Shown here in pieces: positions 7,304 through 14,974 of a stretch of DNA of 64,000 nucleotides (position 1 is its first letter; every line of letters begins with the position of its first letter). The notes under the pieces are model-generated. The model had not been told where the DNA came from and made no database searches. It was given only the letters and a program-made list of their open reading frames with translations. A program made the translations under genes and the position numbers. Source of the stretch: Candidatus Woesearchaeota archaeon (lineage in GTDB: Archaea; Nanobdellota; Nanobdellia; Woesearchaeales; JACQSR01); assembly GCA_016211215.1 (NCBI GenBank), contig JACQSR010000008.1:6546-70545 (forward strand), read 5' to 3'.

Positions 7304-7645
7304 ATGAAATTCACGCTTAGCAGGAAGGATATCATTGCACTCAACCAGTGCTTTGACAACGGCCACGTGCATAATGAGGCAAGCCTCGATTTTGCCCTGG
7401 ATTATGCAAGGAGGACTGAAAACTGGACAAAGGCTCTGGCATGGCTCACGAGGGCCATACTGCTCGACCATGTTTTTGAGGAGGGGAACAAAAGAACGGC
7501 AGCTTTGCTGATAGTCACATATGCGGAATTTGAGGGGCATGACACATATGACGATAAGGTACTTAAATTGATTAAGGAAGTTATAATAAAGAAGACCACC
7601 AGTATAACCAGGATAGAGGAGATGATTAAGGATGCCATCAAATAA
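7304..7645 (+). CDS. doc: Doc/Fic-family toxin (death-on-curing type)
   Basis: HVFEEGNKRTA matches the Doc-type variant of the Fic motif, HxFx(D/E)(A/G)NKR. 113 aa, a typical Doc size. TATA-like TTTAAATA about 25 nt upstream. Confidence 0.8.
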   Translation: MKFTLSRKDIIALNQCFDNGHVHNEASLDFALDYARRTENWTKALAWLTRAILLDHVFEEGNKRTAALLIVTYAEFEGHDTYDDKVLKLIKEVIIKKTTSITRIEEMIKDAIK

Positions 7646-7874
7646 GTTTGTGAAGACTGCGAAGAGGATTGCTGAAAGGGACAAGGCTCTTTTTGATGAG
7701 CTTTTGGAGTTCGAGAAGACCAAGAAAATCAGGACTAAAACAAGGCTTAACTTTACTATTGACAAAGGAGTTGCTTCAAGGTTTAAGAGGCTCTGCAGGG
7801 AAAAGGGCTACAACATGAGCGCAAGGGTAGAGCAGGCTATCAACAAAATGATAAAGAAAGGCGAGGCTGCTTAA
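7632..7874 (+). CDS. ribbon-helix-helix (CopG-like) protein, putative Doc antitoxin
   Basis: C-terminal RLNFTIDKGVASRFKRLCREKGYNMSARVEQAINKMI fits a strand-helix-helix layout. Overlaps the doc stop by 14 nt. Confidence 0.55.
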   Translation: MPSNKFVKTAKRIAERDKALFDELLEFEKTKKIRTKTRLNFTIDKGVASRFKRLCREKGYNMSARVEQAINKMIKKGEAA

Positions 7875-9120: not shown

Positions 9121-10020
9121 TTACTTAACAATTCCCCGAACCATTTGAGGGTATTGAATGTCCTTATAGGTGCAGTCAATATCTGCCCTGTCGAGTAGGG
9201 CGCCATGGTATAATTGCCTTGCAAAAGAGATGCTCTTCAGATATTGATTGTAATAGAAGTTATCGGGTAGGCTGCCAGGGGGTACAATCTTAGTTGGCTC
9301 TCCTTTCATAAAAGTGTCTTCCCGTTTTTTTAATTCCCTGTGCACCCAGAACTTAAACATATCATCATAATCCTCGCTTATTGCCGGAACCATAATAAAC
9401 TCCCTGTACAAGAAACGCACGTTCATTTCAGTAACGCGGTTTTCATTCGAGAAAAGACCATAATCCTTTGCAACATCCCTAAATGCCCACAAGGTTAGCC
9501 CCTCTTCAGCAAGGCGGTTAGTGGGTATATTCAGCTCGAATTCGTTCCCTTCCCTGCTTAGTAAGTATACCCTCCTTTCCTGAGGCTCTTTATGCAGATC
9601 TTCTTCAGCTACTCCCTTATGCACATCATAAAATTCTTCCAATCCAAAGATATGGAGATTCTCGAGTCTTCTAGCCACATCATCGGAGAGTATGTCTTCC
9701 ATTTTGATTTTTTCCGCCTCGGCCTTTTTTGCGGGGTCTAACAATGGTGACTCGCGGACCAGCAAAAGAGGGTTATTCGGGAGATATACAGCACCCTCTA
9801 CAACAAACCCCCCGGTGTCGCACAAGGAATCCTCCTTCGCGGACTTCATTCTTGCATATGCCAAATCCCTCAAAGAAATCATGCTTGACGCTCCAGCCCG
9901 CTCCAACTGCCCAATCGCCTCAAACAAGGGAGCCTTAGCCATCATAATCTTTCCCAAGCCCTCAACTACACCCTCCAATAGAACTTCTGAAGTTTTGTAT
10001 GGGAGCGAATACCTGTCCAT
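9121..10020 (-). CDS. hypothetical protein
   Basis: Long ORF with no competing frame. No motif recognised. Confidence 0.5.
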   Translation of the reverse strand: MDRYSLPYKTSEVLLEGVVEGLGKIMMAKAPLFEAIGQLERAGASSMISLRDLAYARMKSAKEDSLCDTGGFVVEGAVYLPNNPLLLVRESPLLDPAKKAEAEKIKMEDILSDDVARRLENLHIFGLEEFYDVHKGVAEEDLHKEPQERRVYLLSREGNEFELNIPTNRLAEEGLTLWAFRDVAKDYGLFSNENRVTEMNVRFLYREFIMVPAISEDYDDMFKFWVHRELKKREDTFMKGEPTKIVPPGSLPDNFYYNQYLKSISFARQLYHGALLDRADIDCTYKDIQYPQMVRGIVK

Positions 10021-10075
10021 TAGAAGAGGGATTGGCGGAGAATTTAATTAGTTTTGTATACTGCGGCATACAACC

Positions 10076-10119
10076 AATCACTTCAACCCAGATTAAAGTT
10101 ATGGCTATATATTTAAATA
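10076..10119. repeat. left copy of an imperfect direct repeat (relic promoter/5' end related to 12800..12843)
   Basis: AATCACTTCAACCCAGATTAAAGTTATGGCTATATATTTAAATA versus the copy at 12800: 38/44 identical by hand alignment. Weaker similarity continues to about 10185, including GTGAT..TATG at the same spacing from the TATA box. Confidence 0.7.
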
Positions 10120-10206
10120 GGCTTGTCTTCAGGATGTTTGGAGTGTGATGAGTATGAATGAGTACAAGAAATCTACTGCGATTGGGAACATTCTGCAATA
10201 GTCCAC

Positions 10207-10779
10207 CTAGATATCTTTAAATGACATAATATTGCCCGGGCCAATAAAATCCAGCAGCAGTTTGTTTTCCTTCAATTTTCCAAAGCTGTCTGCTTTTAGC
10301 CTTTTCCTGTCAAACTCAATGCTGTAGGCTTTAATTCCATCTGCTATCTTTCTTGACAAAAAATCGCCATCACTTTTAAGCTGACTGACGAGGCTGACAA
10401 CCATTATGTCGTTTGTGATACCTTTGCTGTATTTCTCCAGTTCTTCAAGAATCGACTTTGTTTTAAATATGAATCCCAACACCGCTTTCCTATATTCCAT
10501 TTCGTCTGCGATGTCAATCCTCAGCCGGAACTGGCCAATCTCCTCCGTGTGGAATTTGAACTGCAGATGGGGGTATGAATGCTTTGCAGGTGGCATGTGG
10601 TGCTCGATTGCATAATCTCGATGGACCGTTTTTGGGTTTTCAAACCTTGTGGTAATCCTAAATGAGTATTCCTCTTCCAAAATATTAAGGCTTGGCCTCT
10701 CATCTATAACAACCCTGACTCCCGATTTGTCATAAATCGGCTTGTTGAAATACGTTTTTATAAAATGGAATTCTTTCAT
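10207..10779 (-). CDS. hypothetical protein (downstream partner of the VapB-like fusion gene)
   Basis: ATGA overlap with 10776..11498. AT-rich. No recognised motif and no PIN-like acidic pattern. Confidence 0.55.
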   Translation of the reverse strand: MKEFHFIKTYFNKPIYDKSGVRVVIDERPSLNILEEEYSFRITTRFENPKTVHRDYAIEHHMPPAKHSYPHLQFKFHTEEIGQFRLRIDIADEMEYRKAVLGFIFKTKSILEELEKYSKGITNDIMVVSLVSQLKSDGDFLSRKIADGIKAYSIEFDRKRLKADSFGKLKENKLLLDFIGPGNIMSFKDI

Positions 10780-11498
10780 CTTGTTCTGAATAATTTTCCA
10801 TATTCATTAATCAGCATTTGGGCTTTAGATGCCTGAACTTTGATTGCCCATTCTTTTGGGGGTTTCTCCTCCTCGTTCAATCTAAGCGGGGTTTCTATAT
10901 CATCCCTGAAAGAATCTTCGCTTAGGTTGTAAGAATAGTACAACTTTCTCCAACTTGCAATATTATCGTAGTCTTCAAGTTTTCCTGCATAGAATTTTGC
11001 CCTGAACTCCCTTTCCAAAGCAAGAGCAACTGCTTTTAAGTAGATAGATAAGAAGAAACTGGAATAATGCTTATGGGGGTTATCAACTCCAAAGAATTCA
11101 GAAGGGTTCAGCACGCTTTTCTTCAAGAAGACTTTTTTTATCTTCAAGTCAAGCACAAAATCTGACTGGTTTGACTTAACATCATTGTATTCGTATTCAA
11201 ATCCGATTTCCTCTCCGTATGTATAATCATCAAAAAACTCAGTTTTTCTTTTGTACTTGATTGCATTTGCATTCTCATCTCCAATTGAGGCAGTTTTTTC
11301 GCTTAATGTTGCCAAAATTACATCATCAAATGTTTCATTCGGCCCCTTCTTTCTTTTTAGGGCATCCCAAGTCCTAATGCCTACCTTAATTGTTTTGGTT
11401 CTTGGGGGCGATATAACCCTCGCAGTATTAATTTCATTGCTCCTAATCATTGCTTCACCTTTGTATACTGGGTATACTAAGTGTAGTGGTGTACTCAT
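10776..11498 (-). CDS. protein with N-terminal VapB/DUF217-like antitoxin motif fused to an unknown ~170-aa domain
   Basis: TKTIKVGIRTWDALKRKKGPNETFDDVILATL resembles the archaeal PF02697 pattern (ktItv..e.ye.Lk.lK...eSFsdvI..Ll). The rest is unrecognised. Confidence 0.5.
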   Translation of the reverse strand: MSTPLHLVYPVYKGEAMIRSNEINTARVISPPRTKTIKVGIRTWDALKRKKGPNETFDDVILATLSEKTASIGDENANAIKYKRKTEFFDDYTYGEEIGFEYEYNDVKSNQSDFVLDLKIKKVFLKKSVLNPSEFFGVDNPHKHYSSFFLSIYLKAVALALEREFRAKFYAGKLEDYDNIASWRKLYYSYNLSEDSFRDDIETPLRLNEEEKPPKEWAIKVQASKAQMLINEYGKLFRTR

Positions 11499-11532
11499 AT
11501 TTAAACTTTACTATTGATTTATAGATAAAATG

Positions 11533-11790
11533 TCAACTTACAGTAAAACCTATCTCTTCTTGATCGAAGTTCCCTGCCTTGTCAGTTGCCCTGATGAGGA
11601 GGTTATGCTGCCCAGAAGTGAAGCTTTTGTATTTCTTACTTGAGTAGCCATATTCATTGCAGTCTCTGCATAATGGGCTCAAACTACTCCTTGGGATAAT
11701 TGTGTCATTATACTCAATATCAACCTCTTCAGAAACCGTAATGTTGAAGTAAATCTTGCTGCTTTCATAACCATAGCAGCAAATAGAGAG
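11533..11790 (-). pseudogene. 5'-truncated remnant of an Ig-like surface protein gene (C-terminal ~85 codons, no start codon)
   Basis: Minus-strand frame open from a TAG at ~11791 to a TGA at 11535-11533: PILSICCYGYESSKIYFNITVSEEVDIEYNDTIIPRSSLSPLCRDCNEYGYSSKKYKSFTSGQHNLLIRATDKAGNFDQEEIGFTVS*. No ATG in it. ATDKAGN is the D.AGN motif seen at the ends of the Ig-like repeats in 61814..64000. Confidence 0.4.
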
Positions 11791-11810
11791 AATCGGCTAT
11801 AAGTATTTTA

Positions 11811-11847: not shown

Positions 11848-12072
11848 TTATTTAATTTTATATTCACCTATCGGAAGTATAAATGCCCTAGTGAATCTTT
11901 CAGAAGCAAAACCCAGATCTTCAAAATTGCCCCCCGATTTATTAAATCTATAAGGAACTTCAACTAGTCTAAATCCAGTTACAATATCAGTTATATCTCT
12001 AGTGCATTCACGGATGGTCTTTCCAAACATGTTCCTGTCTTTAATCCAAAGCTTCCAATCAGGCTTCTTCAT
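11848..12072 (-). CDS. hypothetical small protein downstream of the wHTH-nucleotidyltransferase gene
   Basis: 14-nt overlap with 12059..12649. No motif recognised and no HEPN Rx4-6H motif. Confidence 0.45.
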   Translation of the reverse strand: MKKPDWKLWIKDRNMFGKTIRECTRDITDIVTGFRLVEVPYRFNKSGGNFEDLGFASERFTRAFILPIGEYKIK

Positions 12073-12649
12073 CTTGTAACTGCCTCCACCATTCCATCCC
12101 TACAAGAATTACCTTGTCTTTCTTAAGCTTTTTGAAAAATTCTTTAGTGGGATTATGAAATGATTCTTTGAATTCTTTATAGCCGAGATAAACTGAGTTT
12201 AACTGCGTGCTTGTTTTCATGCTGATTTTTTTTGCAGTATTTTCAATCTCTTTAGAATTTTCAATTTTCTGAAAAACCAATAAGATATCAACATCCGAGT
12301 TTTTTGTATAAGTACCATTAGCATAAGAACCAAAAATAACAGCTATCACGGGCTTATCCTTTAATTCCCTTAAGAAATCGTTTACAGATAATTTTACTTT
12401 TGCTGGAAGCCTTTCAAATCTGGAATGTTCAACGGCGCCAAGTGCTGAACTAAGCATTTCTTTTGAGTAATCTAAGAAATAGTTAATCTGGTTACCAGCC
12501 TTTTTCTGTTTAATTAACTTGTTTATCTTTTTAAGTCCGTAATCTATGGAGGGCATTCCTAATTTGAGTTGCTTGGAAAGCCCCCTCTTATGAATCCCGG
12601 GATTAAGGTAAATTTGTTCCAAGATCCTAATTTCAGTTTTGTCATACAT
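12059..12649 (-). CDS. winged-HTH plus minimal nucleotidyltransferase (Pol-beta superfamily, MNT-like) protein
   Basis: N-terminal HTH-like IHKRGLSKQLKLGMPSIDYGLKKI. NTase signature VIFGSYANGTYTKNSDVDILLVF (GS...G....SDxD). Confidence 0.75.
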   Translation of the reverse strand: MYDKTEIRILEQIYLNPGIHKRGLSKQLKLGMPSIDYGLKKINKLIKQKKAGNQINYFLDYSKEMLSSALGAVEHSRFERLPAKVKLSVNDFLRELKDKPVIAVIFGSYANGTYTKNSDVDILLVFQKIENSKEIENTAKKISMKTSTQLNSVYLGYKEFKESFHNPTKEFFKKLKKDKVILVGMEWWRQLQDEEA

Positions 12650-12692: not shown

Positions 12693-12799
12693 CTTTGCTT
12701 TTCATTCCCGCCTTAAAGTGATGTAAGCTATTCTACGCCCCAAGCCCTGCGAATAGCAGTTAAGATTTGTGCCTCTAGATTCTTGTTCCTGATACCCCG

Positions 12800-12843
12800 A
12801 ATCACTTCGACCCAAACTGAAGTTATGGACATATATTTAAATA
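12800..12843. repeat. right copy of the imperfect direct repeat; functional promoter region of the beta-propeller gene
   Basis: AATCACTTCGACCCAAACTGAAGTTATGGACATATATTTAAATA. TTTAAATA at 12836-12843 lies 22 nt upstream of the GTG at 12866. Confidence 0.7.
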
Positions 12844-12865
12844 TGGCGGGCTTACGGAGCATCAG

Positions 12866-14974
12866 GTGATAATTATGTATAAACACAACAAGATTATCTT
12901 TGCGGTTATAGCGGTTTCATTACTTCTCATAATAGGGTGCGCCAAGGAGCCTGTAAAACCTGAAGAGCCACAGCAATCATTAGAGGCAACTCAGGAGCTA
13001 AAGAAGTTTAATTCTGCCGAGGATGTCAAAGACTTCCTGCAGAAGAGTTCCCAGCAGCAGCCGATTTACAGGAGAGGGGGAATAATTGCTGACATGATGG
13101 TGGAGACTGCAGCAGTTTCGAAGGAGGCAGCTCCAAGCGCAGCACCAGCAGCCGAGTATTCAACAACAAACGTACAGGTGGAAGGGGTTGATGAGGCAGA
13201 TTTTGTAAAGAATGACGGAAAGTATATATATGTTCTTGCGCAGAATAAATTGGTCATTGTCAATGCTTTCCCCGCTGAAGATGCAAAGAAGATTTCCACA
13301 ACAGAAATAAAAGGGCATCCAAGGGACATGTTTGTGAACGGGGATACATTAGTTGTATTTACGGATGATTACGATGAGATTTACACAATTTCCGATTATG
13401 ACTTCCTGCCGAGGCCAACCCAGACGCAAATGACGCACGCAATAATTTATGATATTTCCGACAGAAGCAGCCCTGAGAAGGAAAAAGATTACACTATTGA
13501 TGGTTATTACTTCCAGTCGAGGATGATAGGCGATTATGTGTACCTGATTTCAAAGAAGGATGCCTACTATGGTCCGGGGCCTATAATGCCAATATTAAGG
13601 GAGGCATCAACAAAGATAGTTCCCGATGTTTACTACTTTGACAACCCGGAGCTTAATTATGTATTCCACACAATAACTTCAATAAACCTGAAGAACGAGG
13701 AGACAAAGGCAAAGTCATTCCTGATGGGATATTCCAACACGGTTTATGTGTCGCAGGACAACATCTACATTGCATACCAAAAAAATCTGCCGTACTCTTA
13801 CTATCAGTCTTACAACTCAGACAGGTTCTTCAAGGTTGTTGTGCCTCTGCTGCCGGATGAAGTCCAGGACAAAATCGGGAAGATAAAGGCGAAAGACCTG
13901 GAACCATACGCAGAATGGTCGGAGATTTCCGACGCCCTTGAGGAAATGTACAACAAAATGGATGAAGCGGAAAAAGAAGAGCTGAGCGAGGAAATTACGG
14001 AGGCTATAGAAGAATACGAGATAAAGCTTGAAGTGGAGAGAAGAAAGACAGTAATCCACAAGATTGGCATTAGCAATGGAGACATAGAATACAAGGAAAA
14101 GGGCGAAGTTCCGGGATACCTATTAAACCAGTTTTCGCTTGACGAGTTTGACAATCACCTTAGAGTTGCAACCACGACAGAGCTTTATGTAAGGAACAAG
14201 GCTGAAATGTACAACAATGTTTATGTGCTCGACGAGGATATGGACAAAGTTGGAGAGATAGGGGCGATTGCAAGGGACGAAAGGATATACTCCACAAGGT
14301 TTTTGGGCGACAGGCTTTACATGGTTACATTCAAAAGAGTTGACCCCTTGTTTGTGATTGACCTGAGCAATCCCGAGAATCCAAAGGTTCTTGGCGAGCT
14401 TAAGATTCCGGGATTTTCAGATTACCTGCACCCATACGATGAAGACCACATAATAGGAATAGGAAAGGAAACAGAGGGAAATGAATGGGGCGGAGTTTCA
14501 ATTAAAGGCGTAAAGGTTGCATTATTTGACGTCTCTGATGTTGAGAATCCAAAGCAGGTTGACAGTATTGAAATAGGGGAGCGCGGGACAGACTCAGAAG
14601 CATTAAGAGACCACAAGGCATTCCTGTTCGACAAGAGAAACGACCTTGTTGTGATTCCGATCAGGGAGGTTAAGGGTGAGGTGTATGACGAAAGAGGATA
14701 CTATCGTCAAAGAATATGGCAGGGCGCCTATGTTCTTGAGGTAAGCCCGGAAAAGGGAGTAAAAGTCAGGGGCAAGATTTCCCACGGCGAGGAGGATGAA
14801 AGATACTACTGGAATTCCCCAAGCGCAGTCAGAAGGTCATTGTACATGGATGATGTCCTCTACACAGTATCGGCAAGGAAGATAATGATGAACGGCATTG
14901 AAGATGGCTCTGACATAAACGAGGTTAAGCTGCCCTTTGAGGAGGAAAAGTACTACCAGTACGGGTGGTATTAG
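12866..14974 (+). CDS. secreted beta-propeller domain protein (PF09826 Beta_propel family), lipoprotein-like signal
   Basis: YSTTNVQVEGVDEADFVKNDGKYIYV is the hallmark N-terminal motif of this family. Signal/lipobox-like LLLIIGCAKEP. The start could be the GTG at 12866 or the ATG at 12875. Confidence 0.85.
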   Translation: MIIMYKHNKIIFAVIAVSLLLIIGCAKEPVKPEEPQQSLEATQELKKFNSAEDVKDFLQKSSQQQPIYRRGGIIADMMVETAAVSKEAAPSAAPAAEYSTTNVQVEGVDEADFVKNDGKYIYVLAQNKLVIVNAFPAEDAKKISTTEIKGHPRDMFVNGDTLVVFTDDYDEIYTISDYDFLPRPTQTQMTHAIIYDISDRSSPEKEKDYTIDGYYFQSRMIGDYVYLISKKDAYYGPGPIMPILREASTKIVPDVYYFDNPELNYVFHTITSINLKNEETKAKSFLMGYSNTVYVSQDNIYIAYQKNLPYSYYQSYNSDRFFKVVVPLLPDEVQDKIGKIKAKDLEPYAEWSEISDALEEMYNKMDEAEKEELSEEITEAIEEYEIKLEVERRKTVIHKIGISNGDIEYKEKGEVPGYLLNQFSLDEFDNHLRVATTTELYVRNKAEMYNNVYVLDEDMDKVGEIGAIARDERIYSTRFLGDRLYMVTFKRVDPLFVIDLSNPENPKVLGELKIPGFSDYLHPYDEDHIIGIGKETEGNEWGGVSIKGVKVALFDVSDVENPKQVDSIEIGERGTDSEALRDHKAFLFDKRNDLVVIPIREVKGEVYDERGYYRQRIWQGAYVLEVSPEKGVKVRGKISHGEEDERYYWNSPSAVRRSLYMDDVLYTVSARKIMMNGIEDGSDINEVKLPFEEEKYYQYGWY

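Follow-up and report, generated by a model that had tools for sequence, protein, structure and literature searches.

What kind of system is formed by two overlapping genes of a small archaeal genome, if the first of them begins like an antitoxin gene and the second resembles no known toxin? This question is raised by a 64,000-nt stretch of contig JACQSR010000008.1 from a Candidatus Woesearchaeota archaeon (assembly GCA_016211215.1), called the window below, which carries on its minus strand the gene pair A-B (Table 1). An earlier note, made from the sequence alone, had put the pair forward as a candidate novel toxin-antitoxin or defence system. According to our analysis, A-B is very probably a genuine unit of two genes that regulates itself, moves horizontally and contains two undescribed domains. 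The more specific interpretation that it is a mobile, autoregulated type II toxin-antitoxin-like module of Woesearchaeales-type DPANN archaea, again with two new domains, is an evenly balanced call on the sequence evidence. It is favoured because a ribbon-helix-helix (RHH) gene comes first and overlaps its partner, because the promoter carries a putative operator, and because of the strict linkage of the two genes, their patchy occurrence at variable sites, their low GC content and the slower change of B.

The two open reading frames (ORFs) of 240 and 190 amino acids described in the earlier note were both present at their coordinates, including the ATGA at 10776-10779, in which the TGA stop codon of A shares bases with the ATG of B (4-bp overlap). 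In a collection of 5.8 billion proteins, 53 homologous 90%-identity clusters were found for A (E down to 1e-132) and 115 for B (E down to 1e-117), and given these numbers A and B are real genes as judged by homology. The named homologues come from Woesearchaeota, Nanoarchaeota or unclassified archaeal metagenome-assembled genomes. Identity among the homologues is high (50-69%). All A homologues but one have a length of 185-256 amino acids (52 of 53), the remaining one being a 138-residue fragment. Comparison by hhalign showed that A and B are not paralogues. The source genome (1.06 Mb in 35 contigs, 84% complete) is of DPANN-type size and holds a single A-B copy. In the literature on DUF2278, DUF7557, and toxin-antitoxin systems and RHH proteins of DPANN archaea, nothing on the A-B family was found.

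The two genes are strictly linked. In each of the 13 clear loci from a sample of 301 genomes of the phylum, A immediately precedes B on the same strand, and this arrangement was also found in three metagenome contigs and in 15 loci from a collection of 185,579 species genomes, with small overlaps or gaps between the genes. Full-length A occurred only in genomes that also have B, and the lone B-like match without A was marginal (E = 8e-5) and located inside a 673-aa ORF. The expectation that homologues of the two genes co-occur was thus borne out in every clear locus examined. A two-gene operon that is tightly coupled and starts with an RHH antitoxin-like gene is a trait of type II modules. In five A-B pairs compared, B was 47-57% identical and A 40-47%, so that B changes more slowly; in toxin-antitoxin pairs, the toxin is usually the more conserved partner.

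Gene A is probably shorter than its longest ORF. The ATG at 11498 falls within the TATA box TTTAAATA (11498-11505), close homologues begin at the equivalent of M17 (240-aa numbering), and a Shine-Dalgarno-like GGTGA precedes the ATG at 11448-11450; GGTG occupies the same place in many homologous loci. For these three reasons we place the start of A at this ATG, 48 nt below the start of the longest ORF, which yields a predicted protein of 224 residues. The motif TKTIKVGIRTWDALKRKKGPNETFDDVILATL, described in the earlier note as lying about 30 residues into the protein, indeed spans residues 34-65 of the 240-aa ORF, but since the start was probably set too far upstream it would follow after about 17 residues in the 224-aa protein.

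This part of A was searched for relatives of PF02697, the family of archaeal VapB-type antitoxins to which the note had likened it. The match of A itself was weak (residues 35-68, E = 0.009, 17.2 bits, under the 27.9-bit cut-off), yet 26 of 30 members of the A family matched PF02697 (counted at E ≤ 0.1; best E = 6e-8) and 22 of the 30 matched DUF7557. The NCBIfam model PRK13696 also gave a weak match to the region. In an AlphaFold2 model of A (mean predicted local distance difference test score, pLDDT, of 80), the region forms helices at 41-49 and 57-70. Its RHH part is poorly modelled, as expected because a monomer was modelled of an obligate dimer. The profile of A also detected stand-alone RHH ORFs of 65-130 amino acids in 57 further genomes, which align with profile positions 8-55 only and which by this alignment are ordinary small RHH proteins of the VapB/COG1753 class. 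On the basis of these profile matches, the N-terminus of A is probably a VapB/COG1753-type RHH domain, and the likeness that had been noticed holds at the level of the family. According to Makarova et al. (2009; PMC2701414), COG1753/DUF217 proteins are RHH antitoxins specific to archaea, whose partner toxins are PIN or, in some cases, RelE proteins.

The promoter region suggests that A controls its own operon. A TATA element (AAATAGAAAGATTTATATA or ...TTTAAATA) is present upstream of A in nearly all homologous loci and is preceded by a sequence resembling the B recognition element (BRE), AAATAGAAAGA. Between the TATA box and the ribosome-binding site of the window's A gene, four phased boxes form a putative operator, and nowhere else in the 1.06-Mb genome do at least three GTAYAC sites fall within 40 nt. 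In 18 homologous promoters, 42 AGTATAC-like boxes were counted compared to 3.2 expected (maximum 9 in 1000 shuffles); their distance from the TATA box is fixed, and they are spaced 8-9 or 17-18 nt apart. The A-B promoters share ancestry, so that the shuffle test overstates their independence and some of the box conservation could reflect common descent, a point against the toxin-antitoxin-like interpretation. The layout nevertheless reappears ahead of A in loci with differing neighbours and with proteins of only about 50% identity, and neutral DNA would not remain conserved at such protein divergence.

Across divergent A subfamilies, the box sequence shifts together with the RHH β-strand. The strand K(T/N)IK(V/L) of the close family goes with the box AGTA(T/C)AC, TTIS(V/I) with TTATAA or AT-only boxes (loci L039 and L009), TT(I/V/L)R(L/V) with TGTAT(A/G)C (L015-L018), and TTLWIK with CTATAG (L014). 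The β-ribbon of RHH proteins reads the DNA major groove, and such co-variation is therefore as expected of a cognate protein-operator pair; together with the conserved phased array, it forms strong sequence evidence that A probably acts on its own promoter. As transcription in archaea begins about 25 nt past the TATA box, the array would cover the transcription start, expected near 11470-11478. Bound A should thus block polymerase recruitment at the A-B promoter.

The C-terminal domain of A was modelled as a four-stranded sheet followed by a bundle of eight helices, with a pLDDT above 90 over most of its length. It contains the invariant motifs EYEYND, LDLKIKK, PSEFFGVDN and LSE(E/D)SF..DIE.PLR. 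No relative was detected in PDB, either by sequence profile or by Foldseek fold search (significance limit E ≤ 0.001; PDB was searched for A and B, BFVD for B only), and there is no family for it in Pfam. In PADLOC, PHROGs and NCBIfam, no part of A other than the RHH domain had a match. A search with the C-terminal domain alone retrieved no protein with another N-terminus and hence no sign of domain shuffling. The proposed fusion of a VapB-like motif to a novel domain was supported as far as Pfam, PDB sequences and Foldseek against PDB can tell, with a folded domain of about 155 residues. The best Foldseek matches of A or B, such as Hermes transposase, KshA and designed β-barrels, had a probability of at most 0.15 and were taken as noise.

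Protein B is likewise without a known family. Its AlphaFold2 model (pLDDT 83, predicted template modelling score 0.83) has an antiparallel meander sheet of six strands and, after it, a long helix and a helical bundle; Foldseek gave no significant match to this fold in PDB or BFVD. No family was found for B in Pfam, PADLOC, PHROGs or NCBIfam, and a PDB sequence-profile search gave chance or His-tag matches only. An exhaustive HMMER search of 1.84 billion representatives yielded only 73 clusters with 33-276 residues, of which full-length members have about 190-276. Neither B nor 34 homologues matched PIN families in Pfam, and the topology of the model differs from that of PIN domains, in agreement with the statement that the partner is not a PIN protein; a Pfam match of B to RelE was also lacking.

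In an alignment of 41 superfamily sequences with a mean identity of 24%, H67, H71 and F103 of B are invariant, and H61, Q73 and G102 are conserved in at least 90%. The histidines belong to the signature E-x-H-x5-H-x3-H-x-Q, which in the model is located at the end of strand 54-61, in the next loop and at the start of strand 71-78, that is, on a β-hairpin. This signature suggests a metal or catalytic site, and conservation of the polar cluster at such low identity was counted in favour of the toxin-antitoxin-like interpretation. Nine of 34 B family members showed matches to DUF2278 (PF10042; best E = 0.001, 19.5 bits) that align B residues of about 64-125, the segment with the PHLQ histidine cluster, with profile positions 20-82. 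All of these matches are under the 25-bit cut-off and the window's B itself gives none, so that membership is not established. Three enzyme classes were considered for B and rejected: a 2H phosphoesterase with KFHTE as HxT motif, since the motif is not kept outside the close subfamily; an HUH nuclease or relaxase with PHLQ and a third histidine, since there is no conserved catalytic tyrosine and no fold match; and a PD-(D/E)xK nuclease, for which there was no support. In two divergent subfamily members (G255:C21:1755-2243, L014; G094:C7:76557-77081, L015), the B-like matches contain one or two in-frame TAA stops, which may reflect decay of the copies or an alignment that overruns the gene ends.

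The properties of the two proteins also bear on a different explanation, namely that A is a ligand- or metal-responsive one-component RHH repressor of the NikR/MetJ kind and B a non-toxic histidine-cluster metalloprotein or enzyme with an accessory role in stress or metabolism. The operon would then be switched by a small molecule or metal rather than by proteolysis of A. The conserved globular C-terminal domain of A with its invariant polar residues suits a ligand pocket, H61, H67, H71 and Q73 of B resemble a metal site, and the tandem short boxes resemble the metbox arrays of MetJ; many loci among housekeeping genes and the single copy per genome would also fit. Against it, no Pfam match to NikR_C, ACT or another sensor family was detected in A or 30 homologues, H142 and H144 of A are not invariant, and no transporter or pathway genes accompany the pair, whose neighbours vary by locus. 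Patchiness, differing sites within one genus and low GC content moreover suggest a selfish or mobile unit over a metabolic trait. We regard this explanation as the main rival, although a somewhat unlikely one.

The distribution of A-B is patchy, as is that of horizontally mobile type II modules. B was present in 13 of the 301 sampled genomes (12 of the 300 high-quality ones), all of which belong to the window's order and represent many families, and according to this sample and the genome collection the A-B family is confined to one DPANN order (Woesearchaeales-type). Within one genus, the pair was found in two of nine genomes and at different sites. In G091, a 2.7-kb insert contains the pair along with a TrmB-like gene and an ORF of 161 amino acids and is located between genes for 278-aa and 463-aa proteins that are 0.4-0.9 kb apart in G297, G017 and G155. 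In G155, A-B is located between a TBP gene and a gene for a 134-aa protein, a site at which G091 has an unrelated 231-aa ORF instead. Compared to the ±5-kb flanks, the pair had a lower GC content in 15 of 17 loci, and the mean difference was 5.2 points. A vertically inherited, essential core function of DPANN archaea, e.g., a housekeeping regulator with its cofactor, is scarcely credible in view of these data. The high identity of the homologues (50-69%) and the position of some loci beside tRNA synthetase, thermosome, STT3 or TBP genes would agree with it, but it is contradicted by the occurrence in 12 of 300 high-quality genomes and two of nine in one genus, by the empty syntenic site in genomes of the same genus and by the lowered GC content.

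Beside the G091 insertion site, a block of about 100 nt between two protein genes is highly conserved across four genomes of this genus (L023:9795-9905, L048:1618-1728, L049:1768-1878 on the minus strand, L050:1043-1155). It has its own TATA-like promoter, a T-run and a predicted hairpin of 22 pairs, two of them with compensatory changes. It resembled a tRNA gene at first sight, but ARAGORN and Rfam detected none in it, and the block is a candidate for an unannotated small RNA.

The genes surrounding the pair were surveyed at 12 loci. Among the 63 neighbours were three genes for tyrosine recombinases, two of them directly adjacent to A-B, two NikA-like RHH genes, an IS110 transposase gene and an MCM gene. 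These neighbours would also suit a non-toxic control or maintenance module of an integrative element or plasmid, serving copy control, partition, superinfection exclusion or as a DNA-processing accessory like the CopG, omega, ParG and NikA systems. RHH proteins with short-repeat arrays are typical of plasmid control circuits, the 115-nt degenerate duplication that brackets the pair in the window resembles att sites, and PHLQ with a further histidine loosely recalls the metal sites of HUH proteins and relaxases. The pair is, however, usually without replication, partition or integrase genes alongside, and no copy was found in catalogued plasmids and phages by tblastn or in a scan of viral contigs. 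B has no NTPase motif, and a Rep or relaxase fold was not detected by Foldseek. The B superfamily lacks a conserved tyrosine, which makes covalent HUH catalysis unlikely. We consider such a maintenance function very unlikely.

What the sequences show is the gene pair with its strict linkage, the RHH homology, the conserved box array that co-varies with the DNA-reading strand, and the patchy occurrence at variable sites; repression of the operon by A, binding of A to B, any harmful activity of B and the role of its histidines are inferred for the toxin-antitoxin-like interpretation. A would dimerize via its N-terminal RHH domain, and several dimers would bind side by side to the approximately four boxes with their 8-9-bp phasing and palindromic GTATAC core. 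As the array follows immediately after the TATA box and covers the site where transcription is expected to begin, binding of A would shut off the operon. The folded 155-residue C-terminal domain of A would hold and neutralize B, the effector, whose H-x5-H-x3-H-x-Q cluster on the β-hairpin is a likely metal-binding or catalytic site. If A were lost or titrated, B would be freed and the operon derepressed.

Several observations weigh against this interpretation. Both proteins are large for a type II pair, and the C-terminal domain of A is globular, confidently folded and highly conserved, and many of its polar residues are invariant. Such properties are unusual in the tail of an antitoxin; tails of the VapB type are short and flexible. 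B resembles no known toxin fold in the Foldseek searches against PDB and BFVD, and neither protein matches the models of PADLOC-DB v2 (E ≤ 1). The charge pattern is uninformative, as median isoelectric points of 6.9 for B and 6.5 for the C-terminal domain of A do not represent the classic combination of acidic antitoxin and basic toxin. One A-B copy per genome is the rule in most cases, while typical archaeal toxin-antitoxin families are multi-copy. The absence from the plasmid, phage and viral-contig collections mentioned above belongs here as well, as does the finding that most of the 63 neighbours are housekeeping genes. An enrichment of known defence genes beside the pair, which the earlier note had suggested to look for, was not evident; there was no clear excess among these neighbours, only single PADLOC matches. 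Of the original proposal of a novel toxin-antitoxin or defence pair, the toxin-antitoxin-like mobile module agrees with the patchy distribution, the variable sites, the low GC content and the promoter operator, whereas the missing PADLOC match and defence enrichment speak against the proposal. A further possibility is a sensor-effector system of a new kind instead of a plain addiction module. In this case, the C-terminal domain of A would sense, for example, a virus- or host-derived signal or a metabolite and keep B, a histidine-cluster metalloenzyme of new fold, inactive until triggered, with the RHH array setting the dose. We judge this variant to be improbable.

The closest known counterpart of the toxin-antitoxin-like module proposed here is the archaeal VapB(COG1753/DUF217, PF02697)-VapC(PIN) system. 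Its RHH domain is probably homologous to that of A, its RHH gene likewise comes first and overlaps the partner gene, and it is likewise patchy and mobile with an apparently autoregulated promoter. A-B differs in the size of A (about 220 versus about 70 residues), in the extra folded domain of 155 residues that replaces the short tail, in B, which is neither PIN nor RelE and has no known fold, and in its limitation to one DPANN order. AbiEi/AbiEii and MqsA/MqsR offer a parallel for the architecture proposed for A, as their antitoxins combine an N-terminal DNA-binding domain that represses their own promoter with a separate globular domain, and AbiEi and MqsA are as large as or larger than their partners, as is A compared to B. 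Their DNA-binding domains are of the winged helix-turn-helix (HTH) or HTH type instead of RHH, there is no relation to A-B in sequence or fold, and B is neither a nucleotidyltransferase like AbiEii nor a RelE-like RNase like MqsR.

Tandem short boxes bound by RHH proteins are known from MetJ (8-bp metboxes), omega (7-bp heptads), ParG, CopG and NikR; the A-B boxes have a palindromic core and 8-9-bp phasing and overlap the promoter. NikR, with its RHH domain followed by a C-terminal regulatory domain, has a layout like that of A. In contrast to these regulators, A has no detectable NikR_C, ACT or co-repressor site, the GTATAC box is specific to the A-B family, and they have no counterpart of the obligatory partner B. 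DUF2278 (YukJ-like), with its sub-threshold likeness to the histidine segment of B, is itself a family without known function.

In the window, A-B is part of a cassette of 2.7 kb. The A-B stretch is AT-rich, with a GC content of 0.35-0.40 compared to 0.44-0.47 in the flanks, and the cassette is bracketed by a direct repeat (10068-10134 and 12792-12858) whose copies are 76% identical over 67 nt and about 74% identical when extended to about 115 nt. A repeat-bracketed AT-rich cassette, as previously described, was thus found, and the duplication looks like an old att-type or recombination scar. Besides A-B, the cassette contains a gene remnant, an ORF of 74 amino acids and a gene for a nucleotidyltransferase but no integrase, and an Rfam scan of the cassette gave no match. 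The nucleotidyltransferase reported next to the pair was confirmed by its PF01909 match. None of the remnant, the 74-aa ORF and the nucleotidyltransferase accompanies A-B in the loci of other genomes, and therefore the conserved unit is A-B with its promoter.

The nucleotidyltransferase gene overlaps the 74-aa ORF, which has no family match or HEPN motif, and tblastn found 11 further nucleotidyltransferase-like matches in the source genome. The start-less frame of 87 codons, which ends in ...IRATDKAGNFDQEEIGFTVS, shows 37-45% identity to repeat domains encoded by a gene of contig C7 in the source genome. Probably a rearrangement of the cassette severed a surface-protein gene and left this frame as its 3′ remnant. 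For the 299-aa ORF that follows the cassette immediately downstream, Pfam and PADLOC gave no match; it appears to use the promoter region of repeat copy 1, with a TATA-like TTTAAATA about 90 nt upstream. About 2.5 kb from A-B, there is a second toxin-antitoxin-like pair with the toxin gene first. It encodes a 113-aa Fic/Doc protein with the motif HVFEEGNKRTA (PF02661, E = 5e-5) and, in an overlapping 80-aa ORF, a protein with weak RHH and CcdA matches.

Table 1. Positions of A-B, its predicted elements and nearby features in the window.
Feature	Position	Strand	Remarks
Gene B	10207-10779	minus	190-aa ORF; candidate effector
Gene A, longest ORF	10776-11498	minus	240 aa; ORF listing
Gene A, probable revised extent	10776-11450	minus	224 aa; from starts of homologues
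RHH domain of A (VapB/COG1753/DUF217-like)	11289-11396	minus	residues 35-70 (240-aa numbering); β-strand KTIKVGI, then two helices
C-terminal domain of A	10785-11249	minus	residues 84-238 (about 155 residues); AlphaFold2 model and conservation
Histidine cluster of B, E59-x-H61-x5-H67-x3-H71-x-Q73	10561-10605	minus	within YAIEHHMPPAKHSYPHLQFKFH; superfamily alignment
Shine-Dalgarno-like GGTGA	11455-11459	minus	5 nt ahead of the ATG at 11448-11450
TATA box TTTAAATA of the A-B operon	11498-11505	minus	purine-rich BRE-like stretch ahead
Putative operator, four phased boxes	11463-11495	minus	between TATA box and ribosome-binding site; reads AGTACACC ACTACACT TAGTATACC CAGTATAC
Operator box AGTACAC	11489-11495	minus	
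Operator box ACTACAC	11481-11487	minus	degenerate
Operator box AGTATAC	11472-11478	minus	
Operator box AGTATAC	11463-11469	minus	
Repeat copy 1	10068-10185	plus	degenerate copy of the β-propeller gene promoter and first codons
Repeat copy 2	12792-12910	plus	working promoter and 5′ end of the β-propeller gene (GTG at 12866)
Winged-HTH and minimal nucleotidyltransferase (MNT-like)	12059-12649	minus	196 aa; PF01909, E = 2e-10; PADLOC candidate PDC-M05A, E = 6e-15
Pair of nucleotidyltransferase gene and 74-aa ORF	11848-12649	minus	
Start-less 87-codon frame	11533-11796	minus	
299-aa ORF	9121-10020	minus	
Second toxin-antitoxin-like pair	7304-7874	plus	

DPANN archaea have tiny genomes in which most accessory genes are unexplained, and A-B represents a complete and compact unit in which a promoter and a putative operator are combined with a regulator and its partner. 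Should B prove to be toxic and neutralized by A, the type II repertoire would gain a new toxin fold as well as a new antitoxin domain, and the pair could be used to mark mobile DNA in Woesearchaeales. Should B lack toxicity, its conserved histidine cluster would point to an undescribed metal-dependent activity, and if A-B is a sensor-effector system, the defence or stress biology of small-genome episymbiotic archaea would be extended by an effector fold and a regulatory domain that are both new. The co-varying pairs of RHH strand and box (GTATAC, TTATAA, TGTATAC, CTATAG) are, in effect, a natural data set, though a small one, for the reading of DNA by RHH strands.

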